Below, one piece after another: positions 1-30,510 of a stretch of DNA of 32,000 nucleotides. Under the pieces are notes generated by a model, which worked only from the letters and a program-made list of their open reading frames with translations, did no database searches and was not told where the DNA came from. The DNA comes from Nitrospirales bacterium (GTDB taxonomy: Bacteria; Nitrospirota; Nitrospiria; Nitrospirales; UBA8639). The stretch lies in contig OZ241988.1 of the NCBI GenBank assembly GCA_965204475.1, positions 123,545-155,544 on the forward strand, read 5' to 3'. Made by a program: the position numbers and the translations under genes. The first letter of the stretch is position 1. Every line of letters begins with the position of its first letter.

Positions 1-772
1 TCAACGCGCGGCCGTCCTTGTAACGGGCGTGCATGAGTGCCTGCATGAAATCGTCGGGACAGGCCCCGGAACGCCGGCGTTGCGCCATGATCCGGCTGAA
101 GAGGTCGGCCACTCTTCGCCGGGCCCGGTCGCGGCTTCGATGCGCCGTGGTCGGAAGTCTGGGGAGAAAAAATCCCAGGGTGTTGATGCCTTTTTGCAGA
201 TCGTGATACGCCTCGGCAAAACCCGCGTCTATCTGATCCCGGACTTCCTGTCCAATGAGGCAGCGGCTGGCGATCCTGACGGTGAGCTCGTTCATCGCGA
301 CCGGCAGATCGATTTCCCCGTCCTCGCCGAGGGCGTCGGCGAACCACCTCGTCTCCTCGAACATGATGCGGGCAAACCTGCTCATCGCGGCTTCGCGGAG
401 CGCCGGAAACAGAAACCCCAGTTGCTCGTCCATGAGCTCGGGAGAGGCGTCATAAGCCACGCCGCGTCCGAAGATGGGAACAGTGAACTGATAGACGGCT
501 TTGGCGTTCAACTGATCCTCGGGCGCTCTGAAGTAAAAGTCGTGGGCTTCGGGTCCGGTGAAGAGCACAAACTGGCGGGGACCGAGCCGGAACCGGAAGA
601 GTTCGCCCTGCTCGCTCCAGCCGCGGCTCAACATCGAGATCGGATCCTTTAAAAAATCCGGCAGATGACCGATCAGCGGCCACCCGCCCGCGAGTTCGGG
701 AACGGCTTTGGCCGGCGGCGGCGAGAGCTGCGCCGAATGCGGGAGTGCTTCACTGTGAGACCGATGTGTCAT
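1..772 (-). CDS. cyp51: Sterol 14-alpha-demethylase (CYP51-family cytochrome P450), N-terminal ~257 codons; the gene continues past the left edge
   Basis: Missing from the ORF track because it has no stop in the window. Hand translation from the ATG at 772 (minus strand) stays open to position 2: MTHRSHSEALPHSAQLSPPPAKAVPELAGGWPLIGHLPDFLKDPISMLSRGWSEQGELFRFRLGPRQFVLFTGPEAHDFYFRAPEDQLNAKAVYQFTVPIFGRGVAYDASPELMDEQ...GEDGEIDLPVAMNELTVRIASRCLIGQEVRDQIDAGFAEAYHDLQKG... It carries the CYP51 B-prime/BC-loop signature Y-x2-F-x2-P-x-F-G-x-G-V-x-Y-D and is collinear with my recollection of M. tuberculosis CYP51 (FMTPIFGEGVVFDASPE; GEIDLLDFF..CLIGKKFRDQLD). The ATG lies 8 nt downstream of the sterol reductase stop. 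Confidence 0.85.
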   Translation of the reverse strand, partial: MTHRSHSEALPHSAQLSPPPAKAVPELAGGWPLIGHLPDFLKDPISMLSRGWSEQGELFRFRLGPRQFVLFTGPEAHDFYFRAPEDQLNAKAVYQFTVPIFGRGVAYDASPELMDEQLGFLFPALREAAMSRFARIMFEETRWFADALGEDGEIDLPVAMNELTVRIASRCLIGQEVRDQIDAGFAEAYHDLQKGINTLGFFLPRLPTTAHRSRDRARRRVADLFSRIMAQRRRSGACPDDFMQALMHARYKDGRAL

Positions 773-780
773 CCCTGTCC

Positions 781-1881
781 TCAAAAGACGCACGGCAGCA
801 TCGAATAACGCACCCGTTGCGTGTAGCGTTCCCACAACTCGCCGTACTTGGCGCGGCAACGGTGTTCATCACGTCTCGAACGATGCCACAACAGACCGGC
901 CAGCCACGCGGGCAACAGGTAGGGCGCCCAGGATTCGAACCCGGTGGTCAGGGTGAACGCGAGGTAAACGCAGATCTCGCCGGTATAGTTGAGATGCCGT
1001 CCAATACCCCAGAATCCGGAGACCAGCAGACGCCCGTCCAGGGACCGGGCGGGTTGTCCCCAAATCACGGCGTGGGGGTCACGCTTGAAGCGGTGTTTTT
1101 GCTCGTTGGCGCCGCGGAAGATCCAGAAGCCGAGGGCGAACAACAGGACGAGCGCGGCGGCGGCGACGGGAGACAGCGCTTCCGGAGCGTGGACCAGCCA
1201 CCAGCCGGCGAGGCAATAGAAAAACGGCACCAGCACGTAGTCTCCCCAAATCAACATCCATCCGAAGCGCTCACTGACGATGTCCCAGGTGTGGGTCATT
1301 CCGTATTCGAACTGGAAGTAGTTGAGCACGTACAGGAAGGTGAAGATCTGATAGAGCGCCATGGCCAGGGTCAGACCACCGTAGGTTTCGTACTGCACGA
1401 CGGCAAACGATGCGTTGAACAGCGCCAGGGCGATGAGGGACGGGCGGTAGCTGAAAAGCTTCAAATCCACCCCGAGCCAGGTCGGATTGAGCTCCACACC
1501 AAAGAAGAAACCCCGCCACGGTCCCGGTGGCGCATCCCGGGGCCGGGCTCCCCGCCAATACAGCCAGCCGGAAAGAGCGAAGGCGAATCCGTTTGTCACC
1601 ACGAACAAAGCGGCAAAGTGGCTATGCAGCACTGAAAGAGAAAACCAGCCGGAGACTTGGGCGAGACAGGCCACGGTCACGGTAATCAGGAATAAGGCAA
1701 GGCCGTTGAGCGTGTAGGTGGTTGATTGTCCTTCGACCTCCGGTCCGGTCACCCGCCGTCCGGGCAGGAGCATCGAACCCAGGAACAACGCGCCGACAAA
1801 CCCCGACACCATGGCCGCCGCCTCGAGCAGGGCGCCGCCCGACAGCGCGGACGACAGGACGTGCGGCTCAGGTCCCGGCAT
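781..1881 (-). CDS. ERG4/ERG24-family sterol reductase; C-14 reductase is favoured by adjacency to cyp51, but C-7 or C-24(28) specificity cannot be excluded
   Basis: 366 aa, polytopic and hydrophobic. C-terminal family signatures are LLVSGFWGIGRHLNYTGE and HRSRRDEHRCRAKYG, the latter matching R-x2-R-D-x3-C-x2-K-Y-G. Its start overlaps the upstream Rieske gene stop by 14 nt. Confidence 0.85.
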   Translation of the reverse strand: MPGPEPHVLSSALSGGALLEAAAMVSGFVGALFLGSMLLPGRRVTGPEVEGQSTTYTLNGLALFLITVTVACLAQVSGWFSLSVLHSHFAALFVVTNGFAFALSGWLYWRGARPRDAPPGPWRGFFFGVELNPTWLGVDLKLFSYRPSLIALALFNASFAVVQYETYGGLTLAMALYQIFTFLYVLNYFQFEYGMTHTWDIVSERFGWMLIWGDYVLVPFFYCLAGWWLVHAPEALSPVAAAALVLLFALGFWIFRGANEQKHRFKRDPHAVIWGQPARSLDGRLLVSGFWGIGRHLNYTGEICVYLAFTLTTGFESWAPYLLPAWLAGLLWHRSRRDEHRCRAKYGELWERYTQRVRYSMLPCVF

Positions 1882-2995
1882 CGCCGTTCTCCGTCCCGCG
1901 CGCCATGTACTCCCGCCACTTGCGCACGGTCACGTTTTGAAAAGCCCGTACCGCCGGATTGTACTCGATGGGAGGGGCGTCCCAATGTTGCTCGTAACCC
2001 TGCTGCTCCGCTTCGACCGCAACGCCGTCCTGGGCGAGTAACGGGCCGATGAGTACACGGTTCGAGATCTTCAACACCGCGGTCATGGCGAAACGGGGAA
2101 TATGTACCGGCAGCAAGGGCACCTTCAGTGACTTGAAGTAGAACAGGAAGAACGCCCGGGTGGTGCGCTCATCGATCGGGAGGACGAAAAGCCAGTGCTT
2201 GATCGCGTCATCGGTGTTCGACCACTGGTAGGGGTATTGATAGCACAGATCCATATGAGTGGTGTTGAGCCGGTTGTGATCGACAAACAGTCCGGAGATG
2301 CGTCCGCGACCGACCTGCGTATCGTAGGCCACGTGCACGTTGTCCCCGACGGTCTCGCACCGGGTCAGGACGGCGCCTTCTTCGAAGGGACGGTATTGAC
2401 GATGCAGGTGGGCGTGGGTGAAGTCGCTCACGTTGTCGATCACCATCGAGTGGTGGGCCGCCCAGGTGAAGACCAGCGGCTCACAGGCCCACCGCTCAGG
2501 GCCCTCGAGTTCGGGGATGTCCGGGATCCGGCGCAGTTCCGCTCGCTCCGGGTCCCCGGGGAACAACCAGACCAGACCGTAACGGACCTTCACGGGATAG
2601 GTTCTGAGCGGGAGCTTCGGAAGACCCCGTCCGTGGCGGTCGTGGGGGATCGCGACACAGCGCCCGTCGCCGTCGTACTGCCAGCCATGGTAGGCGCACA
2701 CGAGCCGGCAGCCTTGCACCTCGCCCATGGAGAGTTTGAGCTGGCGGTGCGCGCAGCGATTCTCGATCGCGTGAAACGAGCCGTCTTTCCCCCGGAAGAG
2801 CGCAATGGAATGTTTCCAGAAAATGACCTCGACCACCGTCCCCGGTTTGACCCGGCGCACCTCTTCAACCGCGTACCAATAATCCGGGTCCATGCCCGCG
2901 GCGCGGGCTTGCTGGCGCAAGCTGCCGGCCTCATCGAAGCCGGGTGGCGCACCCGGCGCCGGAATCACACTGAGTTTCCGTTTGGAGTTATCCAT
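1868..2995 (-). CDS. Rieske [2Fe-2S] non-haem iron oxygenase; candidate SdmA-like sterol C-4 methyl oxidase
   Basis: 375 aa. Rieske motif CAHRQLKLSMGE...LVCAYHGWQYD (C-x-H ... C-x2-H). DNVSDFTHAHLH resembles the mononuclear Fe(II) site. An 8-nt overlap (ATGGATAA) links it to the upstream dehydrogenase gene. Confidence 0.8.
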   Translation of the reverse strand: MDNSKRKLSVIPAPGAPPGFDEAGSLRQQARAAGMDPDYWYAVEEVRRVKPGTVVEVIFWKHSIALFRGKDGSFHAIENRCAHRQLKLSMGEVQGCRLVCAYHGWQYDGDGRCVAIPHDRHGRGLPKLPLRTYPVKVRYGLVWLFPGDPERAELRRIPDIPELEGPERWACEPLVFTWAAHHSMVIDNVSDFTHAHLHRQYRPFEEGAVLTRCETVGDNVHVAYDTQVGRGRISGLFVDHNRLNTTHMDLCYQYPYQWSNTDDAIKHWLFVLPIDERTTRAFFLFYFKSLKVPLLPVHIPRFAMTAVLKISNRVLIGPLLAQDGVAVEAEQQGYEQHWDAPPIEYNPAVRAFQNVTVRKWREYMARGTENGDAGT

Positions 2996-4112
2996 AGGCC
3001 CGGCTCGGAGAGAAATTGTCCACGGGTGTCGCGGCGGTCACGCACGGACGTTTCGCGAGCGGATTCGTGATCGCGTTGCGGTGGTAGTGAAAGGCGTAGG
3101 CCTCATGAACCGCAGCGCGGATACTGGTCGGCTGATAGCCGAGATCCCGTCTCGCTTTACCGACGTCGGCGTGCAAGCGTTTGCGCAACAGGCGAATGGC
3201 GCCCGGGGTGAAACGCTGGGGGAAGCTCGGGTGAAACCGGCTCAGATAAAAGCTCGTCATTTCCGAAAAAGCGAGCATCATGTTGGCCGGAATACGCCGG
3301 CACGGTCGCGGAACACCCGAGACCTCCTCGAACAGGTCCAGAATCTCGGAAATGGTTTTGTACTCGCTGCTGAAGATGTACTTTTCGCCCGAGCGTCCCA
3401 GGCGCATGCACAACAGGTGCCCTTCGACAATATCCCGCGACGCGACGAACTCGAACCCGCCGTCAACGTAAGCATGGAGCTTGCGGTTGCTGTAGTCACA
3501 CAAAGCTCTTCCCAATCGCGAGGGGAAAAAATCGGCGGGCCCGACCACGGCGCAGCACGTTGCCACCACGACATCCTGTCCCTTCGCCGCGGCGCGCCAG
3601 CACTCATGCTCGACAAGCGACTTGCTGCGCTCGTAGGGCATCGTGCGCTCCATGGGATAGAATTGCATCGTCTCGTTGGCGGGCGCGGACGGATTATCCA
3701 AATCGTACCCGACCGCACTGAAAGAGCCCGTCACCACCACCCGGCCGGCCCCTACCTCCCGCGCCGCTTGCAGCACGTTGCGGGTGCCGAGAACGTTGCA
3801 GTCGAACACTTCTCGGCGATGCGCGCGATTGCCTTCGATGGTCGAGATCTTGGCCGCGACGTGGTAGACGCCCTGACAGCCCTCAAGCGCACGCCGGGTT
3901 GCATCCAAATCCCGGATATCACCAAACCGGCGTTCAACGTCAAGACCTTCCAGTCCTTCGTTGTTGTCCTCGTGTCTCAGCAACACCCGGACCCGGACGC
4001 CGTCGTCGAGCAGCCGGCGCACCAGATTGGCGCCCACGTGCCCGGCCGATCCGGTGACGAAAACGGGCGGCGTCGATGCCCCGGCGGGTGTGCTCGATCC
4101 TGAGGTCATCAT
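2988..4112 (-). CDS. NAD(P)-dependent 3-beta-hydroxysteroid dehydrogenase/epimerase-family protein; candidate SdmB-like
   Basis: 374 aa. Rossmann motif VFVTGSAGHVGANLVRRLL and catalytic Y-x3-K (PYERSKS). Its start codon directly abuts the SMT stop (TGAATG). Confidence 0.8.
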   Translation of the reverse strand: MMTSGSSTPAGASTPPVFVTGSAGHVGANLVRRLLDDGVRVRVLLRHEDNNEGLEGLDVERRFGDIRDLDATRRALEGCQGVYHVAAKISTIEGNRAHRREVFDCNVLGTRNVLQAAREVGAGRVVVTGSFSAVGYDLDNPSAPANETMQFYPMERTMPYERSKSLVEHECWRAAAKGQDVVVATCCAVVGPADFFPSRLGRALCDYSNRKLHAYVDGGFEFVASRDIVEGHLLCMRLGRSGEKYIFSSEYKTISEILDLFEEVSGVPRPCRRIPANMMLAFSEMTSFYLSRFHPSFPQRFTPGAIRLLRKRLHADVGKARRDLGYQPTSIRAAVHEAYAFHYHRNAITNPLAKRPCVTAATPVDNFSPSRAYG

Positions 4113-5144
4113 TCAGTCTCCCGAGCGCCGGGGTTTACGGGCCACGAAGAAATACATCGGCGTAAAGACACCGGACCTGCCGCCTTCGACCAGCGCGTCC
4201 GCCGCCGCATTCAACAGCGTGCTGACCGCGCGGGCGCCTTCCGGAACCAACCGCAATTTCTCCCCAACCTGTAACGTCAAATTGGTCAAGGCGCGGCCGA
4301 TAGGTGTCCGCGGAATGCTCGAAAGACTGAGATCGCGACCCTGTAAAGCCCGGTACCATGGCGTTTCCGGATCCGATTCGGGGGCGAGGTCACGCGCTTC
4401 CAGAAGCTCGAATCCGGCCCTGCGCAATGCGGTGCAAACCTCCGATGTGAGGGCGATATCCGGTAACGCGTCCCCCACCATGATATCGTTCTTGATCCGC
4501 TGGTGCTCGGCGTTTCCCGGATCGAAAGTCTCGGTGAGACACCATTCGTAGCCCGCGAAACAAGCCCCCGGACGCAGAACGCGGAGAATTTCCCGGAACG
4601 CCGCTGTTTTGTCCGGCGCGTGGGGCATGGACTCGATGGCGAAGGCTGCATCGTAGTGGTTGTCACCTTCAAGAATCTGCATGTAATCGCCGTGGATGAA
4701 GCGGCACAACGACTGGACATCCCGGGTGTGTACCTTCGCGCGTTCGATCTGGTAGGGGTTGTTGTTGATACCGACAAAGCCGGCCCCGGAATAGCGGGCC
4801 AGATTGCCCATCGGCCCTCCTACCCCGCACCCCACGTCGAGCACTTGCATCCCCGGCTTCAGGGACAGCCGATCGGCGAGAAAATGCTGGTGCCTGAGCA
4901 GGGACGCTTTGAAGCTCTCGCCTTGGCGTCGGGGTGCAAAGTGAAAGGACTGACCCCAGCCGAACTCGTAGAAATCGGTCACCAGGTCGTAGTAGTGATT
5001 GACCAGCGATTGATAACGCTCTTTCCTGCTCTCCAGGCCGGCGTCGTAAATCCCGGAGTATTGATCGACCACGGATTTCACTTCATCCGGGGCCAGATCC
5101 GCGAGGGAACGAGAGTTGGATCGTTTGGCGGGCGTACGGCTCAT
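4113..5144 (-). CDS. Sterol C-24 methyltransferase (ERG6/SMT family), paralog 1
   Basis: 343 aa. Sterol-MT region I is YYDLVTDFYEFGWGQSFHFAPR. SAM motif I is VLDVGCGVGGPMG. The C-terminus GVFTPMYFFVARKP is typical of the sterol-MT C-terminal domain. Confidence 0.9.
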   Translation of the reverse strand: MSRTPAKRSNSRSLADLAPDEVKSVVDQYSGIYDAGLESRKERYQSLVNHYYDLVTDFYEFGWGQSFHFAPRRQGESFKASLLRHQHFLADRLSLKPGMQVLDVGCGVGGPMGNLARYSGAGFVGINNNPYQIERAKVHTRDVQSLCRFIHGDYMQILEGDNHYDAAFAIESMPHAPDKTAAFREILRVLRPGACFAGYEWCLTETFDPGNAEHQRIKNDIMVGDALPDIALTSEVCTALRRAGFELLEARDLAPESDPETPWYRALQGRDLSLSSIPRTPIGRALTNLTLQVGEKLRLVPEGARAVSTLLNAAADALVEGGRSGVFTPMYFFVARKPRRSGD

Positions 5145-5194
5145 TCGGCCATTTTTCCATATTCAGATGATTTAATCAAGAATAATGCTTTTTT

Positions 5195-5206
5195 TTGCAC
5201 TAGAAT
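5195..5206 (-). promoter_or_regulatory. Shared upstream motif TTGCACTAGAAT (plus-strand reading), copy 1, about 50 nt upstream of the SMT1 ATG
   Basis: The identical 12-mer recurs at 12399-12410, upstream of the GPP34-P450 gene. Both copies are followed by a TTAGGT(G)TAAA-like box (5209-5219 and 12421-12430). No function has been shown. Confidence 0.3.
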
Positions 5207-5214
5207 GGTTAGGT

Positions 5215-5312
5215 GTAAATCCCCGAGTACTGATCGACCACGGATTTCACTTGATCCGGGACCAGATCTGCAAGGGAAGGGAATTCGATCGTTTCGCGGG
5301 TGTGCGAGTGAT
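5215..5312 (-). pseudogene. Degenerate duplicated fragment of the SMT1 5-prime end (about the first 31 codons)
   Basis: 5215-5312 aligns with 5046-5144 at an offset of 169 nt. My hand count gives about 12 mismatches and one 1-nt gap over ~93 nt. The start codon is changed (ATG to ATC) and the frame is broken. Weaker similarity extends into upstream sequence (5145-5190 versus 5313-5362). Confidence 0.7.
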
Positions 5313-5372
5313 TCGAACATTTTGGTGGATTCGCAGGATTTTTTCAAGAGTAAAACATTGGGAATTATGCGC

Positions 5373-5401
5373 TTGACAAGGCCAAAGGGGGTCCATAGCA
5401 T
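5373..5401 (+). promoter_or_regulatory. Candidate sigma70-type promoter for the FAD-oxidoreductase gene
   Basis: TTGACA (5373-5378), 17-nt spacer, TAGCAT (5396-5401). An AGGGGG...CCCCCT inverted repeat brackets the -10 element. Confidence 0.4.
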
Positions 5402-5548
5402 TTGCCCCCTATGTTGTGGAAACACACAACGGTCCATCGGCGTACACCCCATTCCGGCACCGGACGAAATGGGCCCTGCTGAATGTCGTTAGAAACGGGC
5501 GCGGACGATGATAGAGTAGGGGCCATCAGCGAAACGAGGCACGCAGCG

Positions 5549-6907
5549 ATGCCGAAAAGGGTTGCCATTATCGGTGCGGGAGTCTCGGGACTGGGGGTGG
5601 CCTGGGCGCTGCATCAGCACCCCGATCGATTCGATTTTCGGCTGTTCGAAGCTCAGGCTCAGGTCGGCGGCAACGCCGTGACGGCCGACATGCCGCAAGA
5701 CGACGGCACCTCGATTCCGTTCGACATTTCCGTCACCGCGTGCATTCCCTCAGTCTACCACCACATTCTTCTGTTCATGCGGCAACACGGTATCGAGCTG
5801 GTCGATACCAGGTTCAGCTACAGCGTGAAGTACCAGGGCGGCGTCTATGCTCATGATTTCGACTCCGACATCAGGAGACAGTTGCAACCGGAAATCCAGA
5901 AATTCCAGAAGCTCCTGAGGCGTCTGAAATGGTTTGGCCGGCTCAACCGGTCCAGGTCCAGATTGCTCAATGCGCTCAACCCGTTCAACTACGTCAGCAT
6001 GGGTACGGTTCTCAACTTCGGCGGGTTCTCCGGAGATTTCAGGTACAAGATCCTGAAGCCCATGTTCGTCAACTTCCTGATGGCCACGAACGTGTTCGAC
6101 ATGCCCGCGTCCCTGTTTGCCCGGTATCTGGAGTTCTTCGATATTGAAACCGCAACGCCGATGCAAACCTGGGACCGGGGTACGCGGCGAATCTATGAAA
6201 ACATGTCGGCTGCCTTTCAGGACAAGATATACCTTAACCGACCGGTTCGAAAAGTGTACCGGCGTGCATCCGACGTCGTCGTAGAGGACGAGAACGGAAA
6301 CACGGAAACGTTTGATGACGTCGTGTTCTCGTGCAACGCGAATCAAACGCTGATGCTTCTGGATAAACCGGCCCTTCTGGAGCGCTGGATTCTCTCTTCG
6401 ATACGGTACGAGAGCGAACTGCACAACCACACGATCGTGCATTCGGACGCCTCGATTCTTCCGGACAACGAGGTCAAGCCGCTCGGCACCCGGAGCAACC
6501 ACATCGAGCAGTACGGTGTCCGACCCGACAACTACGAAATCACTTACATCATGCACAATCAGCAGCCTTGGGCGAATCGATCGGACAAACCGTGCCTGGT
6601 GACCTACAATCCGATCAGTCGTATCGACGAAGCCAAGATTGTCAAGAAGTGGTGGTTTCAGCACATCGTGCACGATGTGTCTCACATCGTCCTGCTGGTC
6701 CCGTTGTTTCGCTTCGTGCAAGGCAAACGGCGAACGTGGCACTGTGGCGCGCACACGCTGATCAACAGCCAGGAAACCTGTTTCGTGACCGGTCTTGTGA
6801 CAGCGAGACAGATCGGGGCGGACTATCCCTTTCAGGATTCCGAAGCCAGGAAATGGTTCAACTTCTACGGACGCGTGATGTACGGTTGGCGCTTGAGGAA
6901 GGCGTGA
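5549..6907 (+). CDS. NAD(P)/FAD-binding amine-oxidase-like oxidoreductase (COG2907-like)
   Basis: Dinucleotide-binding motif KRVAIIGAGVSGLGVAWAL...FEAQAQVGGN. I prefer the ATG at 5549 (GAGG lies 9 nt upstream) to the ORF-track start at 5483. The product is ~452 aa. Confidence 0.7.
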   Translation: MPKRVAIIGAGVSGLGVAWALHQHPDRFDFRLFEAQAQVGGNAVTADMPQDDGTSIPFDISVTACIPSVYHHILLFMRQHGIELVDTRFSYSVKYQGGVYAHDFDSDIRRQLQPEIQKFQKLLRRLKWFGRLNRSRSRLLNALNPFNYVSMGTVLNFGGFSGDFRYKILKPMFVNFLMATNVFDMPASLFARYLEFFDIETATPMQTWDRGTRRIYENMSAAFQDKIYLNRPVRKVYRRASDVVVEDENGNTETFDDVVFSCNANQTLMLLDKPALLERWILSSIRYESELHNHTIVHSDASILPDNEVKPLGTRSNHIEQYGVRPDNYEITYIMHNQQPWANRSDKPCLVTYNPISRIDEAKIVKKWWFQHIVHDVSHIVLLVPLFRFVQGKRRTWHCGAHTLINSQETCFVTGLVTARQIGADYPFQDSEARKWFNFYGRVMYGWRLRKA

Positions 6908-6998
6908 ACCAGAGCTTGCGCGGCGCGGCCCCGGTTTGGTGAGACAGTTCCCTGGCAGAATGACAACTTGGTTGTCCAAAGAGTGCAATTAACAGCAC

Positions 6999-7027
6999 TG
7001 GACTCGATGTCGTTGGTAAGCTATAGT
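6999..7027 (+). promoter_or_regulatory. Candidate promoter for the omp-Rieske2-SMT2 unit
   Basis: TGGACT (6999-7004), 17-nt spacer, TATAGT (7022-7027). It would give a ~120-nt leader containing nested stems (see findings). Confidence 0.35.
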
Positions 7028-7156
7028 ATCCTCGACCTGACAACCTGAGTGTCCCGGTTCCGCCGTATGGAAGCGGCGTGGAGTAAGAGGCTAGTGCCCC
7101 ACGCCTCGGGACACGATTCGGGAAAACAGCAGTCGAACTGAAAGCGAGGAGACGCC

Positions 7157-8071
7157 ATGAGACGTATTCCATACCGGACAATGATTCTTCAACGAATTTT
7201 TGTTGCGACGGTTGCCCTTGCCGTGTTTCTTCTGCCGGTGTTCTCACCCGATGCGCGCGCGTCGGAGCCGAGATGGTACGTCGGCTTGAGCGTCCCGGTC
7301 ATGTTCCTTGACGACTCGGAGAGCGTCACGAGCGGGACATCCCTTGGAAGCCAGTACAGCGCGAACGCCACCAACGAATACAAGGCGGGGTTCAAGGTCA
7401 GCGGCATGGTGGGCCGTGAATTCGGCAACGGCTTCCGTCTCCAGGTCGAAGGTTTCTTCGCCAGGGCCGATGTCAACAAGCTGACCTACAACGGGATCAC
7501 CTCTTCCGCGTTGCAGGGTGTCGATATTGAGGACGTGAACATCCCCGTGTCCGGCCCGGCAGACCAATTGGGCGCCATGGTGAACGTCTGGTACGACTTC
7601 AATGAAGGCTCCCGCTGGAGACCCTTCATCGGCGGCGGCCTGGGCTTCGTCCAGGTCGATTGGGGCGGCGTGGATTATGAAGTTGGTGCGCTCGAGCAAT
7701 CGATTGCGAACCAGACTGCGCTCGCTGGCGCGCTTCAACATGCACAAGCCATGGGCTTACCTCCGGGCGCCCCCCTGCCTCAAGCGGCCAGAGATGCGGC
7801 ACTGGCCCAGGCCCAACTGCCCCCGGGGACTGTGCCAGACCTTTCCGGCACCGATACGGTGTTCGCCTTTAAGGTCGGCGGGGGACTGGGCTACGAGCTC
7901 ACCAATCACATTACCCTCCAGGTCAGCTACCGCTTCTTCAAAACCAACCAGTTGGAGTTCAACGGCAGGAATGCTATTGAGGTCATGGGTAATACGGTGG
8001 TCAATACGGTCAAGGCGACGTCCGATTTGCAAGGTCATCTCTTCGAGGTGGGTGTACGCTATCGTTTCTAG
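7157..8071 (+). CDS. Outer-membrane beta-barrel protein (OmpA-like/OMP_b-brl family) with signal peptide
   Basis: 304 aa. GAGGAG lies 5 nt upstream of the ATG. The signal peptide ends in ARA/SE. The body has alternating beta-strand-like segments and a C-terminal aromatic residue (...FEVGVRYRF). Confidence 0.75.
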   Translation: MRRIPYRTMILQRIFVATVALAVFLLPVFSPDARASEPRWYVGLSVPVMFLDDSESVTSGTSLGSQYSANATNEYKAGFKVSGMVGREFGNGFRLQVEGFFARADVNKLTYNGITSSALQGVDIEDVNIPVSGPADQLGAMVNVWYDFNEGSRWRPFIGGGLGFVQVDWGGVDYEVGALEQSIANQTALAGALQHAQAMGLPPGAPLPQAARDAALAQAQLPPGTVPDLSGTDTVFAFKVGGGLGYELTNHITLQVSYRFFKTNQLEFNGRNAIEVMGNTVVNTVKATSDLQGHLFEVGVRYRF

Positions 8072-8111
8072 GTACATCCTGCCGGGCCAAGGAGTGCGAT
8101 AGCGGATACCC

Positions 8112-9140
8112 ATGACAGCCGGTCGAGACGAGCGCCTCCCCTCGCTTTCTCCCTTTCCGGAAGGCTGGTTCTTTGTCGCCGGCCGCAAGACGATCGAAAA
8201 GGCGAAGTTGGTCAAAAAAACCTGGATGGGCGAACAGATCGTTGTATGGTGCGACGAGGAAGGACGCATCTGTGTGGCCGAGGCGGTCTGTGCGCACATG
8301 GGTTCCGACCTGGGGCCGGAAGCCGGGGGCCGCGTGCGCAACGGCTGCCTCGTCTGCCCGTTCCACGGCTTCCAGTACGATGTCACCGGCCAATGCGTGG
8401 CCACGCCCTACGCGTCGGCGCCCAGGACCGCCAGGCTGAAGGTCTTCCACACGCGTGAAATCCTGGGTCTGGTTTTTGGCTGGTGGGGCATTGACGGACG
8501 GCCGCCGCAATGGGAGCTGCCGGAAGCGCCGCCGACCGGAGACGACTGGTGCGATTTGGATTTCTGGAGCGTCCGGGTCCCGGGGCATCCCCAGGAAACG
8601 ACCGAGAACTCCGTGGACCTGGGCCATCTGCGCTACGTGCACGGCTACAGCAGCGTGAACGCGATCGGTTCGGTGTCAATCGACGGCGCCTACCTCAAGA
8701 GTTGCTTCGACTTCAAGCGAACCCAGACCATCGCCGGGATCAAGGTCTTCGCGTATGATGTTTCCGCGGTCACCCACGTGTACGGGTTGGGCTATTCGTT
8801 CGTCGAGGTTCACGAGCGTGCGATCGACATGCAGACGCGTTTGTGGGTGCTGGCTACGCCCATCGACGGCAGACTCGTCGAACTGGTGCTGGTCAGCCAC
8901 GTGCGGCGAATCCTGAGACCGAAGCGGCCAATCGTGGGCATGCGCTTCCTGCCGTCACGCCTGCGCACCAGGCTCATGAACAAGATCATCATGGCGGCTC
9001 AAAAGCGGGATGTCATGCAGGACGTCGTGATCTGGGGCCGAAAACACTATCGGCCCCGCCCCATTTTATGTCGCTCGGACGGGGAGATTGGAACGTATCG
9101 GCGTTATTGCGAGCAATTCTATCCGGATCGTCCGGATTGA
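8112..9140 (+). CDS. Rieske [2Fe-2S] non-haem iron oxygenase, paralog 2 (Neverland/KshA-like architecture)
   Basis: 342 aa. Rieske motif CAHMGSDLG...LVCPFHGFQYD. Fe(II) motif ENSVDLGHLRYVH (D-x2-H-x4-H). Confidence 0.8.
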   Translation: MTAGRDERLPSLSPFPEGWFFVAGRKTIEKAKLVKKTWMGEQIVVWCDEEGRICVAEAVCAHMGSDLGPEAGGRVRNGCLVCPFHGFQYDVTGQCVATPYASAPRTARLKVFHTREILGLVFGWWGIDGRPPQWELPEAPPTGDDWCDLDFWSVRVPGHPQETTENSVDLGHLRYVHGYSSVNAIGSVSIDGAYLKSCFDFKRTQTIAGIKVFAYDVSAVTHVYGLGYSFVEVHERAIDMQTRLWVLATPIDGRLVELVLVSHVRRILRPKRPIVGMRFLPSRLRTRLMNKIIMAAQKRDVMQDVVIWGRKHYRPRPILCRSDGEIGTYRRYCEQFYPDRPD

Positions 9141-9172
9141 TTTCAGACAGAGGTGAAAGGGGACACCACGCC

Positions 9173-10207
9173 ATGCGACTAGGCAAACTATCGAACTGGC
9201 TGAAGGATGCGTACCGGGAAGAGGACGTCACCCGTCAGGTGCAACACTTCGACGGCTGGATCGATCGGGCGAAGCCGGAGGATGTCGTCGCGAGCCGGTA
9301 CGATCACACCGAAACGGTGAAAGAGTACTACGATCTCTGCAGCCCATTCATGGTCTACGGTTGGGGTGAATCCCTGCACTTCGCGCCCCTTACGCCTTGG
9401 GAGAGTCTGGAGGACTCCAAAGTCCGGCATCAGCGGTTGATGATCGCCAAGCTGGAGTTGCACCCGGGCATGACAATCGTCGATGTCGGGTGCGGCGTCG
9501 GCGGCCCGATGCGCCGGGTCGTCCGGGAGGCCGGTGTCCGGGTTGTCGGGATCAACATCAATCAAATCCAGTTGGCGAACGCGAAACGGGAGAACTCCGA
9601 GGCGGGGCTCGACCACATGGTCGATTACGAGGCGTGCAGCTTCATGGACATGAGCGCCATCAAAGACGAGACGTTCGACTGCGGTTATGCCATGGAGTCA
9701 ACGTGCCACGCGCCGGACAAGGAACGCGCGTTCGCGGAGATATTCCGGGTGCTGAAACCCGGAGCCCTGTTCTGGGGTCAGGAAATGTGTCTGACGGACA
9801 AGTACGATCCGAACGACAGCCGGCACCGGGCCATCAAGCGGGATCTCATGCATGGCATTGCGCTGCAGGACATTGCGACGTTCGGGGAAGTGAATCATGC
9901 GCTCGAAGCGGCGGGATTCCACGTCATCGAGGAGATGGACCGGGACGTCCAGGAGGGACCATCCACACCATGGTATCAACCCATGGAGACACGGCATGGG
10001 ACCCTCGGTAACGCCTTGTGCAGGCTTCCATGGGGCCGCAAAGTATTTATGGCGGGATCGAAGCTGGCCGAGGTGCTGCGGCTGTTTCCGAAGGGCTCCG
10101 CGGAGGTTGTCCGCCTCATGGATCGGACCGCGGAGGCCTACGTCGCGGGCGGCAAGTCGGGGATCTTCACGCCGTTGTACTGTTTTCTAGCCCGCAAACC
10201 CCTTTAG
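9173..10207 (+). CDS. Sterol C-24 methyltransferase (ERG6/SMT family), paralog 2
   Basis: The ATG at 9173 (MRLGKLSNW...) is preceded by AGGTGAAAGGGGA. The ORF-track start at 8843 would overlap the Rieske gene. Motifs: YYDLCSPFMVYGWGESLHFAP, IVDVGCGVGGPM, and C-terminal GIFTPLYCFLARKP. Confidence 0.88.
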   Translation: MRLGKLSNWLKDAYREEDVTRQVQHFDGWIDRAKPEDVVASRYDHTETVKEYYDLCSPFMVYGWGESLHFAPLTPWESLEDSKVRHQRLMIAKLELHPGMTIVDVGCGVGGPMRRVVREAGVRVVGININQIQLANAKRENSEAGLDHMVDYEACSFMDMSAIKDETFDCGYAMESTCHAPDKERAFAEIFRVLKPGALFWGQEMCLTDKYDPNDSRHRAIKRDLMHGIALQDIATFGEVNHALEAAGFHVIEEMDRDVQEGPSTPWYQPMETRHGTLGNALCRLPWGRKVFMAGSKLAEVLRLFPKGSAEVVRLMDRTAEAYVAGGKSGIFTPLYCFLARKPL

Positions 10208-10256
10208 ATCCTTATCCCCAAAGTCTCTCCGGTGATTGGCTATTTTTTCTTCGAGC

Positions 10257-10281
10257 TTTCCCGGAACAGGCCGGCGGGAAA
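10257..10281. terminator. Weak bulged hairpin between the convergent SMT2 and P450 genes
   Basis: TTTCCCGG-aacagg-CCGG(cgg)GAAA. There is no clear U-tract. Confidence 0.2.
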
Positions 10282-10328
10282 ACTTGTTGGACCGCAGTGG
10301 AGGGGCAGGGAAATGACCGGCTGGCGCG

Positions 10329-12356
10329 TCAGACGGGCAGTTCGCGCCTCCGCTCCGCGATGCGGAACTTCAGCTTCTTGCTGGGCTTCATCGACGGAAG
10401 GGGGTCGAACCGAAGCTTGTAGTTCTCGGGAGCTACCTCGATCGTGAAGTAATGCGCGACCATCAGCACGTTGACGGCCAATTGCAGTTCCAGCCACCGG
10501 GAGCCGAGACACGTGTGCGTGCCCAGCCCGAACGGGGCGTACCCGGGCTTGAGGTGCTCATTGCGCGGAGGCAGATACCGGTCGATATCGAATGTGAAGG
10601 GGTCGGGAAAGACGTCTTTCATGTAATGCGTGGCCGTCTGGGCAATATAGATGTTTGTCCCGACCGGCAGTTCGTAGTCCTCGACCACGCACGCATTCAT
10701 CACGGTTCGAATAGACATCGGGACGATCGGGTACATGCGCAGGCACTCCATGAGGAAGCGGTGCGTGACGTCAAGTGCGGACAGGGTGAAGTCCTCGGCA
10801 TCAGGGTCGCCGCTGTCGAACAGGGCATCGGCTTCATTCTGGATTTTGGCATAGAACTCGGGCTGCGACGCCATGGCGTACAACGCAAAGCTGAACGCAT
10901 CGCCAAGGTACACGCTGGCGATCAGCGCTGCTGAAAGCTGGAAGCGCAACGTCGTCTCCGGCACGAACTGCGGATCGCTTGCGTGCAGGCTGAGCCAGTC
11001 GTCCGCAAGGTTCCGTGGAGAACCAGCACGCTGCGCGGGTGTATGGACGCTCTGGATCCGTTCCAGCAGCGTATCCACGGCTTTCGCCCGGCGTCTCATG
11101 CCCGGAGTTTTCAGCATGAACTTGGGCAGCATCTTCACAATGTGGACGAGGAGTGCTCGTTCCTTATACTTCGCCAGATCGTCAAAGATATCCTGAGAAT
11201 CAACGCTGACAAAGAGCGGTGAGAGCTGCGCGTTGACCATCTGCCGGCTCATGTTCGTCGCAGTATAGGAGTCTCCGACCGTCCAATTCGCCATGTGATT
11301 TCTGGCATGATGATAGAGTTGGTCCAACTGCCCTTCCAGTCTTCTGCGGGAATACGCCGCCGACATGGACTTGCGAAGCCGGAAATGATCGGCGCCGTCC
11401 AAGGAAGGCATTACTCCGGACGCGCCGTAGACCTTCTCGAAGTCATTAAAATAGTCCTTGGTTCTCAGGTACATGCGCCCGCGCTTATGCGCCCAGCGGT
11501 TTGTCTCGGACCCGGCCAGAAAGATCATGGGCTTCGCAAACGGCGGGCGGATCTCGAACACCGGGCCATACTCTTGCGCAAGGTCCGCAAAGAGCGCGGG
11601 AATGTTGCCCTTGCGCACATGTGGACTGAGCAGCACTTTATGTAGCGAAGCAGTCGGAATCTTCTTGGTCAGGGCGGAATGTCGAAGCAAGGGGCCGGCC
11701 AAGTTGTGGGAGACCGCATCGGCGATGGACCGGCCGATCAAATCCATCTTACAGATGAGCCGGATGCGCTCTTCCGACTCCTCATCGAGTTGGAATATGA
11801 AGCGGAAGACGTCGCACGTATTGACGAGGCAAATAACGATGATGTCTCTCGGATCGGGAATCTCGTTCATGAAGATGGCCCTGCTGATCCGCGTTTTGAC
11901 GAACTGACCTGCAGTGCCTTCAGGGGAGTTGCCGTACCGTTCCGTCTGCCAGCCGGTATGAGCCAGCGTCCAGAACTCGCCGTCGTGGTATTCCAGGATC
12001 TTCAGGTTGACCAAACGATCCAGAGTCAAATCAATGACTGATTCCGCACGGGGGGCGAGCCGTTCAATCCAGAACTGTGTGCTTCGTTGAATTGGTTCGC
12101 TTGCAATCTCTTTCAGAATGGGGTCCAGGGCGGGGTCGCCCGTTTCTGTCGGGTCCACGAGGAACAGAGATTCCATGTCCGTGTCGATGCGCGACAGGAG
12201 GGAGAGTTCCGCGAGTACTGCGCCGGCGACGGCGCAGTTCAAATCCCAGCCGGGTACTTGGTGAAAGTATCCGTTCTCCTCGTTGAGGAGCATCAGGATG
12301 AGCTCTTCGGGCAAACTGAGCGTTTGGGTCGTCAAACCCTCTTTAGTCACAGCCAT
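10329..12356 (-). CDS. Fusion protein: N-terminal GPP34/GOLPH3-family domain (~residues 12-215) plus C-terminal cytochrome P450 (~residues 240-675)
   Basis: 675 aa. The N-terminus, LSLPEELILMLLNEENGYF...AVAGAVLAELSLLSRI...LDRLVNLKILE, is typical of GPP34. The P450 part has YGPVFEI, the ExxR motif (ECLRMYP) and the haem-thiolate loop FGLGTHTCLGSRW. Confidence 0.8.
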   Translation of the reverse strand: MAVTKEGLTTQTLSLPEELILMLLNEENGYFHQVPGWDLNCAVAGAVLAELSLLSRIDTDMESLFLVDPTETGDPALDPILKEIASEPIQRSTQFWIERLAPRAESVIDLTLDRLVNLKILEYHDGEFWTLAHTGWQTERYGNSPEGTAGQFVKTRISRAIFMNEIPDPRDIIVICLVNTCDVFRFIFQLDEESEERIRLICKMDLIGRSIADAVSHNLAGPLLRHSALTKKIPTASLHKVLLSPHVRKGNIPALFADLAQEYGPVFEIRPPFAKPMIFLAGSETNRWAHKRGRMYLRTKDYFNDFEKVYGASGVMPSLDGADHFRLRKSMSAAYSRRRLEGQLDQLYHHARNHMANWTVGDSYTATNMSRQMVNAQLSPLFVSVDSQDIFDDLAKYKERALLVHIVKMLPKFMLKTPGMRRRAKAVDTLLERIQSVHTPAQRAGSPRNLADDWLSLHASDPQFVPETTLRFQLSAALIASVYLGDAFSFALYAMASQPEFYAKIQNEADALFDSGDPDAEDFTLSALDVTHRFLMECLRMYPIVPMSIRTVMNACVVEDYELPVGTNIYIAQTATHYMKDVFPDPFTFDIDRYLPPRNEHLKPGYAPFGLGTHTCLGSRWLELQLAVNVLMVAHYFTIEVAPENYKLRFDPLPSMKPSKKLKFRIAERRRELPV

Positions 12357-12662: not shown

Positions 12663-14897
12663 TTACCCCAAGGTGGCGAGGATGTTGTTGAACGTGGCGC
12701 TCGGGCGCATGGCCGTTGCGACCTTCGCCGGATCGGGGTGGTAATAGCCGCCGATGTCCATGGCCTTGCCTTTCACGGCCTTCAACTCGTCGAGGATTTT
12801 CTCGACGTTGGCCTCGAGCTCTTTTGCCACGGGCGCAAACTTTTCCCGTAACGTTGGATCGTCGGTTTGCGCGGCGAGTTCCTGTGCCCAATACAGGGCT
12901 TCGTACACGTGGGTGCCGATGTTGTCCAACTCGCCCAGCACCCGGCCGGGTGCCTTGCGGTTTTCCATGAGCTTGCCCGTGGCCCGGTCCAGGGTATTCG
13001 CAAGGACTTGCGCCTTCTTGTTGTTACGGGTCCGGCTGAGGTGAGCAAAGGATTCCGCCAAGGCGAGAAATTCACCGAGAGAATCCCATCGCAAATGCCC
13101 TTCTTTCACGAACTGCTGGACGTGTTTCGGGGCCGATCCGCCGGCGCCCGTTTCAAATAAGCCACCGCCGTTGATGAGTGGAACAATGGAGAGCATCTTG
13201 GCGCTGGTGCCCAGTTCCAGGATCGGAAACAGGTCGGTGAGATAATCCCGCAACACGTTGCCCGTCGCGGCAATGGTGCTTTGCCCGTCCTTGGCCCGTT
13301 TGAGAGAATGCTTCATGGCATCCACCGGGGCCATGATTTGGATGTCCAAGCCCGTCGTATTATGGTCTTTCAAATAGCGGTTCAGCTTTTCGATGAGCTG
13401 CGCGTCGTGTGATCGGTTCTTGTTCAACCAGAACACCACCGGCATTCCGGACGCCTTGGACCGATTCACGGCCAGCTTCACCCAGTCCTGAATCGGAATG
13501 TCCTTGACCGTACAGGCGCGGAAGATGTCGTCTTTTTCCACTGCCTGTTCGAGCAGGACGTTCCCGGCTCCATCCATCACGCGGATGGTTCCATTTCCGG
13601 GCGCCTCGAAGGTCTTGTCGTGCGATCCGTATTCTTCGGCTTTCTGGGCCATGAGACCCACGTTGGGCACGCTGCCCATGGTGGCCGGATTGAAGGCTCC
13701 ATTCTCACGGCAGAAGTCCGCCACGGCCTGATAAATCCCCGCGTAACTGCGGTCCGGGATCATGGCCTTCGTGTCGTATTCCTTACCGTCCGGTCCCCAC
13801 ATTTTCCCGCCGACGCGAAGCGCCGCGGCCATCGACGCATCGATGATGATGTCGCTCGGCACGTGCAGGTTGGTGATGCCCCGGTCCGAGTCCACCATCG
13901 CGAGGTCCGGGCCGTTTTGCATGGCCGCTTGCAGGTCGGCTTTGATTTCTTCCTGCTGCGCGGCGGGCAGGGAGCCGATTTTCGCATAGACGTCGCCCAA
14001 CCCGTTGTTGGGATTGACTCCGAGATCGGCAAAGACCTTTTCATGTTTCTTGAAGACGTCCTCAAAATAGACGGACACGCAATGGCCGAAAATAATGGGG
14101 TCCGAGACTTTCATCATGGTCGCCTTCATGTGCAGCGACAGGAGAATGCCGCTTTTCTTGGCCTCCTCAACCTGTTCCTTGAAGAATTGCCGTAATGCGC
14201 CGGCGCTCATTTTCGTGGCGTCCACCACGTCACCCTTGTCGAAGGTGACGCTGTCTTTCAATACGGTCGTGCCGCCGTCCGCGCCGACGAATTCGATGCG
14301 GCCCTTTCCCGCCGTTTGTTCGGTAATCGTCGTTGATTTTTCATTGGAAAAGAAGTCTCCACCCGACATGGACGCGACGTGCGTTTGTGAATCTTTGGCC
14401 CATGCCCCCATTTTGTGAGGATTCTTTTGGGCATATTGTTTCACGGAGGACGACGCCCGACGATCCGAATTGCCTTGTCGCAGCACCGGGTTTACCGCGC
14501 TGCCTTTCACCTTGTCGAACTTCGCCTTGATGGTCTTTTCTTCATCGGTCTTGGGGTCTTCGGGGTAATCGGGAATGGCGTACCCCTGGGATTGCAATTC
14601 GGCCACCGCGCCTTTGATTTGAGGAATCGATGCGCTAATATTCGGGAGTTTGATGACGTTGGCTTCCGGCGTTTCCACCATTTCGCCGAGGATGGCGAGA
14701 TCATCGGGTTGCCGTTGTTCCGGCTTCAAGCTGTCGGGAAATTGCGAGATAATTCGGCCGGCCAGCGAAATATCCTTCCTGCCGACGTTCACGCCTGCGG
14801 TATTGGCAAAGGCCTGGATAACCGGCAGAAACGAACCGCTCGCCAGTTCCGGAGCCTCGTCGACTTTTGTATAGATAATATCCGGTTCTGCTGACAT
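12663..14897 (-). CDS. icd: Monomeric NADP-dependent isocitrate dehydrogenase
   Basis: ~744 aa from the ATG at 14897. GGAGGAGG lies 5 nt upstream, whereas the ORF-track start at 14918 has no SD. The N-terminus, [24 protein letters not shown]...[14 protein letters not shown], matches the monomeric IDH family (Azotobacter type). Confidence 0.92.
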
Positions 14898-15018
14898 GTG
14901 TTCCTCCTCCATGTTCAAGGTTGTGAAAGATTAACAAATCAACCGGAATACGATTCCGGAGACCGAACAAAGAATTTTAGAGAGAACCGGCATTCGACGC
15001 AATCAACCGAAAGCCCCA

Positions 15019-16323: not shown

Positions 16324-16439
16324 CGATCCGTTTTCGGGAAAACTGCGAGGTCAGGCTTAGGAATGGGTCTTTCGTGACTCCCTGATATGGGCCTTTCGAT
16401 TGATTGCGGCGGGGAAACATTCTCTTTACAATCGCCGGT

Positions 16440-16468
16440 TTGACATCCTGATCTTCTCTTATTATTCA
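16440..16468 (+). promoter_or_regulatory. Candidate promoter of the aclBA/rTCA gene string
   Basis: Consensus TTGACA (16440-16445), 17-nt spacer, TATTCA (16463-16468). An AAGGG SD lies 7 nt before the aclB ATG. Confidence 0.4.
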
Positions 16469-16488
16469 GACTAACTAAGGGTTGCATT

Positions 16489-17685: not shown

Positions 17686-17735
17686 CGGTCGTTGAAAGAG
17701 ATCTTTGCAAACATATTGAGACGTAGGAGAGTTCG

Positions 17736-19562: not shown

Positions 19563-19633
19563 CAACATTGACGGTTTCCTTTGACCCGGTCCGCAAAAGG
19601 ATCGGGGCTCGGAAGCCATGCGGAGAACGTCCT

Positions 19634-21883: not shown

Positions 21884-21976
21884 ATGCGTTTCTTCCCTTC
21901 GCTCCGCTTCCTTCGGCTAGGCTCAGGACAGGCAGGGGAGGCAAAGGAGGGGAACAGAGGAGTACGGCAAACGAAT

Positions 21977-22696: not shown

Positions 22697-22713
22697 GGGA
22701 GTGCGGCTGACAC

Positions 22714-24294: not shown

Positions 24295-24416
24295 CAGGAT
24301 GTTGAAAAAAGCCACCAGTTTTGTTCTCGCGTCGCCCTGAGGCTCGACGTACTTCATGTACGCCTCGCCTTCTCGCTTGCTGCGGCCGCGCTGGACGACT
24401 TTTTTTGAACATCCTG
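24295..24416. repeat. ~122-bp element bounded by 17/18-nt terminal inverted repeats (MITE/REP-like or a long stem-loop) between frdA-like and sucC
   Basis: The left arm is CAGGATGTTGAAAAAAG (24295-24311). The right arm is CTTTTTTTGAACATCCTG (24399-24416), whose reverse complement is CAGGATGTTCAAAAAAAG. Internal sub-hairpins: GAGGC...GCCTC and CGTAC-ttcat-GTACG. Confidence 0.5.
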
Positions 24417-24500
24417 CCTTCAAGCGGTTTTTGGGGAGTTTGGCCTGTTTCCTGGTGAGGAGTGGCCGCTTAGCGAGCTTTTTTCTTAAAGAGGAGAATC

Positions 24501-25688: not shown

Positions 25689-25744
25689 TCGCCCCGTCGT
25701 TCGGGTTTGGCCACGTTGGAACGCAGTGAGGAAAGGAATAGCGC

Positions 25745-26966: not shown

Positions 26967-27043
26967 AGCGGTCTCGCTCCTTGCGGCTCATCATAAACAC
27001 AACGCATCAAGGAAATCCACTGTGATCCGCGTTCTTCAACCTC

Positions 27044-28177: not shown

Positions 28178-28246
28178 ACTCGGATTACAGCCCTTCGCTG
28201 GCACCATCGATGAGCAGTCGAGAAACAAAGGGTTGCAAGACGTTCA

Positions 28247-30487: not shown

Positions 30488-30510
30488 GGTTGGAAGCCGG
30501 TTTTTTGGGA

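Follow-up and report, generated by a model that had tools for sequence, protein, structure and literature searches.

Why does a single bacterial sterol gene neighborhood carry two genes of the sterol C-24 methyltransferase (SMT) family? The question is raised by a 32,000-nucleotide stretch of DNA from a Nitrospirales bacterium of the sponge/coral type (NCBI GenBank assembly GCA_965204475.1, contig OZ241988.1, positions 123,545 to 155,544 of the forward strand; hereafter the window), in which a first-pass annotation had recognized two diverged SMT paralogs, here designated SMT1 and SMT2, and had raised the prospect that they divide between them the sequential alkylation of C-24. Based on a comparison of the window with published clusters and with retrieved genome loci, we favor, with modest confidence, a different answer, namely that the two methyltransferases of the window belong to units with separate functions and do not form a two-step pair. 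SMT2 is genetically linked to a cassette of cytochrome P450, Rieske and flavin adenine dinucleotide (FAD)-dependent enzymes rather than to SMT1, and more probably serves as a tailoring methyltransferase that acts on another substrate.

Two methyltransferase paralogs and their gene neighborhood

Both proteins belong to the SMT family. Each matches Pfam Sterol_MT_C (E 6e-23 for SMT1 and 1.4e-15 for SMT2) and class I methyltransferase domains, the S-adenosylmethionine (SAM) motif DVGCGVGGP is common to the two, and the C-terminal motif reads FTPMYFFVARKP in SMT1 and FTPLYCFLARKP in SMT2, so that the paralogs with hallmark motifs seen in the first-pass annotation are not a chance match. Its by-eye estimate of roughly 40% identity was likewise accurate (43% over 304 residues by BLASTP, E 3e-85), and the two enzymes do differ in Region I (FYEFGWGQSFHF in SMT1 versus FMVYGWGESLHF in SMT2). 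SMT2 lies within a longer open reading frame (ORF; 8843-10207) that overlaps the upstream Rieske gene over its first 110 codons; the true start of SMT2 is the ATG at 9173, orthologs starting at the matching site, and upstream of this ATG is a purine-rich GA/G stretch, GAGGTGAAAGGGGA, which by eye is a possible ribosome-binding site. Because the window has a G+C content of about 58-62%, many of its long ORFs are spurious, and real genes were picked by domain searches. The genes and the intergenic region on which the argument turns are as follows.

1-778, minus strand: 5′ part of CYP51 (sterol 14-alpha-demethylase), with a B'-helix signature in the minus-frame translation; the gene continues past the left window edge
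781-1881, minus strand: sterol C-14 reductase homolog of the ERG4/ERG24 family (Pfam PF01222, E 1.7e-72)
1868-2995, minus strand: SdmA-like Rieske oxygenase (bacterial sterol C-4 demethylation; Pfam Rieske + VanA_C)
2988-4112, minus strand: SdmB-like NAD(P)-dependent reductase/decarboxylase (Pfam Epimerase/3Beta_HSD)
4113-5144, minus strand: SMT1, predicted canonical sterol C-24 methyltransferase, 343 amino acids, with all 25 functional-SMT residues
5145-5482, no strand: intergenic region separating the divergent SMT1 and FAD enzyme genes, with sigma-70-like matches in both directions
5483-6907, plus strand: FAD-dependent amine-oxidase-fold enzyme (Pfam Amino_oxidase)
7157-8071, plus strand: outer-membrane beta-barrel protein (Pfam OMP_b-brl, E 8.8e-14)
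8112-9140, plus strand: KshA-like Rieske non-heme-iron oxygenase (Pfam Rieske + KshA_C)
9173-10207, plus strand: SMT2, divergent SMT-family methyltransferase, 344 amino acids (Pfam Sterol_MT_C, intact SAM motif)
10329-12356, minus strand: GPP34 (GOLPH3-like) + cytochrome P450 fusion (Pfam GPP34 E 1e-27, p450 E 8e-38)

The SMT1 operon, on the minus strand, thus diverges from the plus-strand set made up of the FAD enzyme, outer-membrane protein, KshA-like enzyme and SMT2 genes, and the GPP34-P450 fusion gene, on the minus strand, converges on SMT2. The sigma-70-like matches between the two divergent sets (plus strand 5373-5401, 10/12 positions; minus strand 5347-5319) are consensus matches only. 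The top NCBIfam match of the SdmA-like protein is 4beta-methylsterol monooxygenase SdmA (E 4e-122, 407 bits, below the equivalog cutoff of 600) and that of its neighbor is SdmB (E 4.5e-87, also under the cutoff), while the ortholog of the C-14 reductase is named ERG24 in Supplementary Data 1 of PMC10070321. Genes beyond the window edge were read from contig L001, whose nucleotide sequence shares 97% identity with the window. There, the intact CYP51 P450 spans 469 amino acids and is directly followed by a squalene epoxidase-oxidosqualene cyclase (SE-OSC) fusion of more than 964 amino acids (L001:12516-15407; Pfam SE + SQHop_cyclase_N/C), in agreement with ERG1 and ERG7 matching one gene in the tables of Brown et al. 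The gene set of a bacterial sterol cluster is present, with CYP51 (partial), ERG24, SdmA-like and SdmB-like genes in the window and SE-OSC in L001, and the position of the SE-OSC fusion beside CYP51 indicates that the locus encodes de novo sterol synthesis, beyond sterol modification.

SMT1 and its orthologs in published clusters

The cluster is not new: orthologous clusters were assayed by Brown et al. 2023 and Brown & Welander 2025. The first of these, from the IMG 'Nitrospira sp., coral reef' metagenome-assembled genome (MAG) (PMC10070321), presents in the same order and orientation the genes for CYP51, ERG24, SdmA, SdmB, SMT1, the FAD enzyme, the outer-membrane protein, the KshA-like enzyme, SMT2, GPP34-P450 and isocitrate dehydrogenase; the gene order of retrieved locus L003 (JAAXIB010000027.1, isolate Plut_88904, a 70,077-bp contig) is that of this MAG cluster (genes 2682229270 to ...279). 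Its '1 of 2' enzyme (IMG 2682229274, beside sdmB) is the counterpart of SMT1, at 84% identity, and is active, whereas its '2 of 2' enzyme (IMG 2682229270), the counterpart of SMT2 at 91% identity, is inactive. The two clusters differ in strain or species and host sample, in residue 249 of SMT1 (D249 in the window, N249 in the coral-reef enzyme; residue numbering throughout is that of yeast ERG6), and in that the tested coral-reef SMT2 has D189N and a TTG start.

The second tested cluster, from Aplysina aerophoba, has the core genes, SE-OSC fusion, SMT2 and GPP34-P450 in common with the window, its SMT1 and SMT2 being 85% and 86% identical to those described here, but its order is rearranged, with SMT1 beside SE-OSC and no FAD, outer-membrane protein or KshA genes between the SMTs. 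Its SMT1 (Ap_sym_SMT) forms 24-isopropyl sterols and carries F81, F83 and G249; the SMT1 of the window has Y81, F83 and D249, residue 249 thus being that of the engineered G249D state of the A. aerophoba enzyme. Brown & Welander 2025 print the codon-optimised DNA of this propylating enzyme, and in a frame-tolerant test (the published DNA being damaged by optical character recognition [OCR]) exact 6-mers covered 90.6% of the residues when compared to the SMT1 of locus L007 and about 50% when other SMT1s were used. The L007 SMT1 sequence is encoded by the G225D primer as well, and the gene order of L007 (MPMZ01000005.1, Nitrospira sp. bin75, from A. aerophoba; SMT1 at about 8115-9140) is that of contig JGIcombinedJ30088_10000835, so that L007 is equal or nearly equal to the published cluster. 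Therefore, the "yet-unknown" symbiont from which the propylating enzyme derives appears to be a Nitrospirales bacterium.

Steroid clusters sharing the same core genes (ERG24-CYP51-LSS) were also reported from Ircinia symbiont MAGs (Kelly et al. 2022, PMC9531527), across about 10 sponge-symbiont phyla including Nitrospiria and with an enrichment in SMTs; the two SMT clades were not separated in that work, nor was the cassette of SMT2, GPP34-P450, Rieske and FAD enzymes described. Literature searches combining Nitrospira with sterol methyltransferase, and aplysterol with methyltransferase, returned nothing beyond the Brown papers.

SMT1 itself has the residues of a functional enzyme. Region II is present as DVGCGVGGP at residues 103-111, in line with matches to Pfam Methyltransf_11/25; the PF08498 (Sterol_MT_C) domain scores 81 bits against a cutoff of 21.7 (E 6.3e-23); and all 25 of the 25 residues conserved in functional SMTs are retained, including Y81, E82, F83, GWGQSFHF, E195, G217 and W286. 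Identity to yeast ERG6, measured on what we take to be the reference sequence and which agrees with all 32 literature positions, amounts to 42% for SMT1 and 36% for SMT2, and the SAM-dependent olefin methylation chemistry of SMT1 is shared with the eukaryotic members of the family. From these residues, SMT1 is predicted to be a canonical C-24 SMT that methylates a Delta24 sterol to 24-methyl products, a reaction demonstrated by others for its orthologs at 84% and 85% identity, and it probably also adds the second carbon alone, yielding 24-ethyl products. 24-Isopropyl sterols, on the other hand, are not expected from SMT1, because D249 and Y81 replace the G249 and F81 of the propylating ortholog. 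In published mutagenesis, G249 was required for 24-isopropyl formation, though not enough by itself, and F81 increased sequential methylation; SMT1, with D249, Y81 and F83, lacks the propylating combination of G249 plus F81 and/or F83. The G249D mutant of Ap_sym_SMT lost its C30 sterols while retaining all C29 products, and SMT1 has D249 naturally, plus Y81 and F83. Furthermore, 'Nitrospira 1 of 2' (N249) formed (epi)codisterol from desmosterol and is placed among known ethylating enzymes, above the "(1)" label of the supplementary alignment (10.64898/2025.12.19.695621); because of this row position, it was most likely scored as performing two methylations. The Y81/F83/D249 form is that of the majority of the closest SMT1 homologs (85/120), G249 being rare (2/120).

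Single SMT1-type bacterial SMTs have been found to carry out two or three successive methylations alone (PMC10070321), and SMT copy number is therefore not predictive of alkylation. What remains of the first-pass annotation is thus a pair of paralogs in a sterol cluster, their different Region I and a bearing on 24-alkyl sterane biomarkers; the division of labor that it envisaged for sequential C-24 alkylation is poorly supported, the published tests of orthologs arguing against it. The pairs known from plants (SMT1/SMT2) and Acanthamoeba (24-SMT/28-SMT) do split the first and second methylation, but both of their paralogs have an aromatic Region I, whereas in the window SMT1 is predicted to act sequentially alone and SMT2 has a remodeled Region I and a separate genomic partner.

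SMT2 and the cassette around it

SMT2 combines an intact methyltransferase core (DVGCGVGGP in Region II; PF08498 E 1.4e-15, 57.5 bits) with departures from the aromatic Region I and from the list of 25 residues, reading M81, V82, Y83 and GWGESLHF. We compared it with its relatives in 80 retrieved genome loci (74-96% identity), the closest of which are sponge and coral Nitrospirales MAGs, and with 120 database homologs. Across these (81 locus copies and 120 homologs), M81, L89 and Q223 show no or almost no variation, and the SAM motif, H90, E195, G217 and W286 are preserved; I249 is found in 119 of the 120 database homologs, and V82 and L219 are the usual residues. F89L and Y223Q are invariant across the clade, position 223 lying outside the published list, and T78S and L341M are also found in the window copy. 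In published models, the side chain of the docked sterol lies between positions 81 and 249, and Regions I and IV are known sterol-binding regions. A scan of 1.84 billion representative proteins yielded 256 proteins at E <= 1e-30, among which the L89/Q223 sequences formed one clade (40/40 neighbor-joining bootstrap), sister to the bacterial SMT1-type group. Ratios of nonsynonymous to synonymous substitution rates (dN/dS) between SMT2 and its relatives were 0.17-0.33, in the same range as for SMT1 and the neighboring genes; a decaying duplicate was rejected on this ground and on that of the invariant residues. A structure search returned no true sterol methyltransferase structure to anchor the pocket, the sole chain so named being a weak match (E 3.8e-8, 231 residues).

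Two orthologs of SMT2 have been assayed, 'Nitrospira sp., coral reef 2 of 2' (91% identity) and 'A. aerophoba ... 2 of 2' (86%), and both are entered as 'No activity' (Suppl. Fig. 1, 10.64898/2025.12.19.695621), the substrates being desmosterol and 24-methylenecholesterol, both of them Delta5 4-desmethyl sterols. Because of these entries, SMT2 is classed here as an SMT-family homolog and not as a demonstrated C-24 SMT. The 'No activity' list has 11 rows, and the text of the paper also counts 11 inactive enzymes. Brown et al. 2023 (PMC10070321) had stated 20 of 24 bacterial SMTs to be active, five of which set are placed among the inactive enzymes by the later supplement; for the symbiont SMTs, 8 of 10 were active according to PMC10070321, and 3 of those 10 are 'No activity' in the supplement of 10.64898/2025.12.19.695621. 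A mis-called start as the cause of the inactivity of 'Nitrospira 2 of 2' was considered and rejected, the TTG of L003 being at the position of ATG 9173; 15 codons are open upstream of this TTG.

The inactivity of the two orthologs is what one would expect if SMT2 were a paralog that is catalytically dead or serves in regulation, or if it methylated a non-sterol lipid or a hydroxyl group made by the P450 (O-methylation). Such a role would also accommodate T78S, F89L and, in the window copy, L341M, which depart from functional-SMT residues in a manner that Brown & Welander suggest may mark non-functional SMTs, as well as the distant clade members in L082 and L084, which have no other sterol genes nearby. 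We nonetheless judge it quite improbable: dN/dS values of 0.17-0.33 and an identity of 74-96% in copies from many phyla exclude gene decay, the SAM motif, E195, H90 and the sterol-methyltransferase C-terminal domain of SMT2 are intact, its taxonomic spread parallels the sponge-symbiont classes carrying the sterol core cluster, and in Nitrospirales the SMT2 region abuts the sterol operon.

The neighbors of SMT2, counted within 10 kb in the 80 loci, revealed a consistent partner. The GPP34-P450 fusion (at least 55% identical to that of the window) adjoins SMT2 in 62 loci, at a median distance of 50 bp, and in about 12 others (L004, L005, L006, L009, L011, L012, L028, L031, L049, L062, L067 and L072) a paralogous GPP34-P450 (42-45% identical) near SMT2 replaces the close ortholog. 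Even two distant clade members, P0246 (39% identical to SMT2) and P0241 (56%), adjoin GPP34-P450 fusions, a third deeply diverged member being without one. A KshA-like oxygenase is found near SMT2 in 68/80 loci and an FAD enzyme in 31/80; SMT1-type genes, by comparison, are near SMT2 in nine loci, and core sterol genes in four or five (four Nitrospirales and one unclassified MAG with a partial set). Within Nitrospirales, L004, L005, L006 and L009 have SMT2 and the KshA-like gene with no SMT1-type gene within 10 kb, SE-OSC appearing among them in L005 and L006 only, and because of this SMT2 may not depend on SMT1. Hosts of the SMT2 cassette carry at least 13 bacterial phylum-level labels, a spread resembling the list of sponge-symbiont classes with the ERG24-CYP51-LSS cluster (PMC9531527). 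Compared with copies from Latescibacterota, Dehalococcoidia, Gemmatimonadota and Acidobacteria, the SMT2 of the window shows a synonymous divergence of 0.5-0.7, and GPP34-P450 one of 0.7-1.4 between phyla (L013, L016, L019 and L061 versus window 9173-12356), both unsaturated. Such low values across phyla imply a comparatively recent horizontal transfer of the SMT2/GPP34-P450 pair among sponge symbionts.

These counts bear on the possibility that SMT1 adds the first methyl and SMT2 the second or a later one, at C-28, on the native nucleus (a 4-methyl or Delta8 24-methylene sterol), giving 24-ethyl or larger side chains. Eukaryotic SMTs are nucleus-specific (see also PMC5711494), plant SMT2 preferring 24-methylenelophenol, and this speaks for such a scheme, as do the Sterol_MT_C domain, SAM-binding residues, H90, E195 and G217 intact in both proteins and the location of both genes inside one 6-kb neighborhood in Nitrospirales. 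The substrates tested were two Delta5 sterols, and the authors of the assays say that inactive SMTs may need others. We nevertheless consider a C-28 role unlikely, since SMT1-type orthologs perform the second methylation alone, and in one case a third; since SMT2 has I249, large residues at position 249 having blocked sequential methylation in a Chlamydiae enzyme; since Y81 and F89 of the aromatic Region I are lost; and since 71 of the 80 SMT2 loci lack an SMT1-type gene within 10 kb yet have retained the P450 partner. The same substrates were, moreover, accepted by most of the other bacterial SMTs assayed (with the count of 20/24 qualified as above).

Of the partner enzymes, the GPP34-P450 fusion is the most conserved in its association. 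It is 76-100% identical in 120 homologs, whose sole source name is 'cytochrome P450'; the GPP34 domain is conserved like the P450 domain (mean identity 79% versus 82%) and may be a membrane or lipid anchor. The fusion was rejected as the CYP51 of the cluster, the real CYP51 being at the left edge of the window and the P450 of the fusion matching CYP51 structures weakly (E ~1e-19). By eye, its I-helix reads S-V-Y-L-G-D-A-F-S, with no obvious acid-threonine pair. No paper linking GPP34, P450 and sterol was found in the literature. The FAD enzyme has LkcE (E 3.5e-22) and PDB entry 2b9w (E 1.8e-8) as its closest solved relatives; the latter, which we take to be the Propionibacterium acnes fatty-acid double-bond isomerase, would, if so, suggest a role as a lipid-chain desaturase or isomerase over amine oxidation.

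The KshA-like enzyme has intact Rieske and DxxHxxxxH motifs, and its closest solved relatives are 3-ketosteroid 9-alpha-hydroxylases (E 4e-28). This invites the thought that SMT2 is a ring A methyltransferase of the STRM/4-SMT kind acting on a 3-keto sterol, with the KshA-like and FAD enzymes doing the 3-ketosteroid chemistry. SMT-family enzymes methylate C-4 of 3-ketosteroids in nematodes, dinoflagellates and haptophytes, and have, like SMT2, lost aromatic residues of Region I (PMC6997595, PMC9136925); the inactivity of the SMT2 orthologs on 3-beta-hydroxy Delta24 sterols would also be accounted for. However, the aromatic motif is lost in part only, W/Y83, W85, H90 and F91 being retained in SMT2, the protein is sister to bacterial side-chain SMTs in the neighbor-joining tree, and its smallest conserved partnership is with the P450, without the Rieske enzyme, and we hold a ring A activity to be the least probable of the roles considered here.

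Transport genes flank the cassette in many loci: an outer-membrane protein gene in 13 of 80 (Nitrospirales, two Nitrospinota-labeled and some unclassified MAGs), and, in other phyla, an AcrB/HlyD/OEP efflux system in about 40 loci or an MMPL protein with a sterol-sensing domain in 11; examples of such RND or MMPL neighbors are at L030:4700-7894, L017:3493-4704, L056:1938-3509 and L012:4815-7130. These neighbors hint at export of the cassette product to the outer membrane.

Taken together, these observations are best accommodated, in our view, by two separate units. Unit 1 would be the minus-strand core operon for de novo sterol synthesis, comprising SMT1, SdmB, SdmA, the C-14 reductase, CYP51 and then the off-window SE-OSC fusion, in which SMT1 would do the known C-24 chemistry by itself. 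Unit 2 would be a horizontally mobile tailoring cassette with SMT2 and GPP34-P450 as its core, supplemented by the KshA-like oxygenase in most loci and by the FAD enzyme and transport or outer-membrane proteins in a substantial minority. The oxygenases or desaturases would alter the sterol made by unit 1, introducing a new double bond or an oxidized position, and SMT2, through a remodeled sterol pocket (M81, V82, L89, Q223, I249), would transfer the SAM methyl to this new site, a reaction distinct from the C-24/C-28 methyl additions assayed to date; the product would probably go to the outer membrane. What is observed is the family membership of the proteins, their orthology to assayed enzymes, the signature residues, purifying selection and synteny; an active SMT2, a sterol as its substrate and this order of the steps are matters that we infer.

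Several points weigh against this proposal. In the Chlamydiae enzyme, G249D removed C29 sterols too, and SMT1 may accordingly stop at one methyl. The two-methylation call for 'Nitrospira 1 of 2' depends on row order in a supplementary table read by OCR. Since two Delta5 4-desmethyl sterols were tested, a 24-methylene sterol with the native nucleus could be the substrate of SMT2, and its proposed activity on another substrate is deduced from the conservation of its clade. The P450, Rieske and FAD enzymes are distant from characterized ones. Finally, SMT2 and the P450 gene are convergent in the window and not co-transcribed.

Neighboring genes and significance

To the right of the GPP34-P450 gene, the window holds a reductive tricarboxylic acid cycle gene set (12663-26617), consisting of monomeric isocitrate dehydrogenase, ATP-citrate lyase beta and alpha, aconitase, a fumarate-reductase-like pair of Fe-S protein and flavoprotein, and succinyl-CoA synthetase, which fits the expectation for an autotrophic Nitrospirales host. 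Two stretches, 26700-28200 and 30500-32000, are of low G+C content (about 0.48 versus 0.58-0.62 elsewhere); the first, possibly of foreign origin, contains the gene for a NERD-domain protein (27044-28177). The whole window is free of tRNA genes.

As one more Nitrospirales case of a published and partly tested cluster, the window alone changes little. New here are a prediction for SMT1 derived from its residues, the placement of the propylating enzyme of A. aerophoba in a Nitrospirales lineage and the delineation of the SMT2/GPP34-P450 cassette as a unit that is conserved, under selection and spread horizontally. SMT2 is the useful part: treated in the literature as possibly non-functional, it is found here to be conserved, under selection, exchanged between lineages and paired with GPP34-P450, which makes the cassette a concrete, testable candidate for sterol modification. 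24-Isopropyl and 26-methyl steranes serve as the earliest chemical evidence of animals, and as of 2025 their origin from sponge or bacterial methyltransferases was not established (PMC12541326). A sterol methylation of new regiochemistry by the SMT2 clade together with GPP34-P450 would bear directly on this issue, its most consequential form being methylation at C-26/C-27 of the Delta25(27) products of SMT1-type enzymes. We regard this proposal as a rather long shot. If true, it would use (epi)codisterol and clerosterol to build aplysterol- or 26-methylstigmastane-type side chains in many symbiont phyla, and the missing enzyme for the second 'sponge biomarker' would lie on a mobile bacterial cassette.

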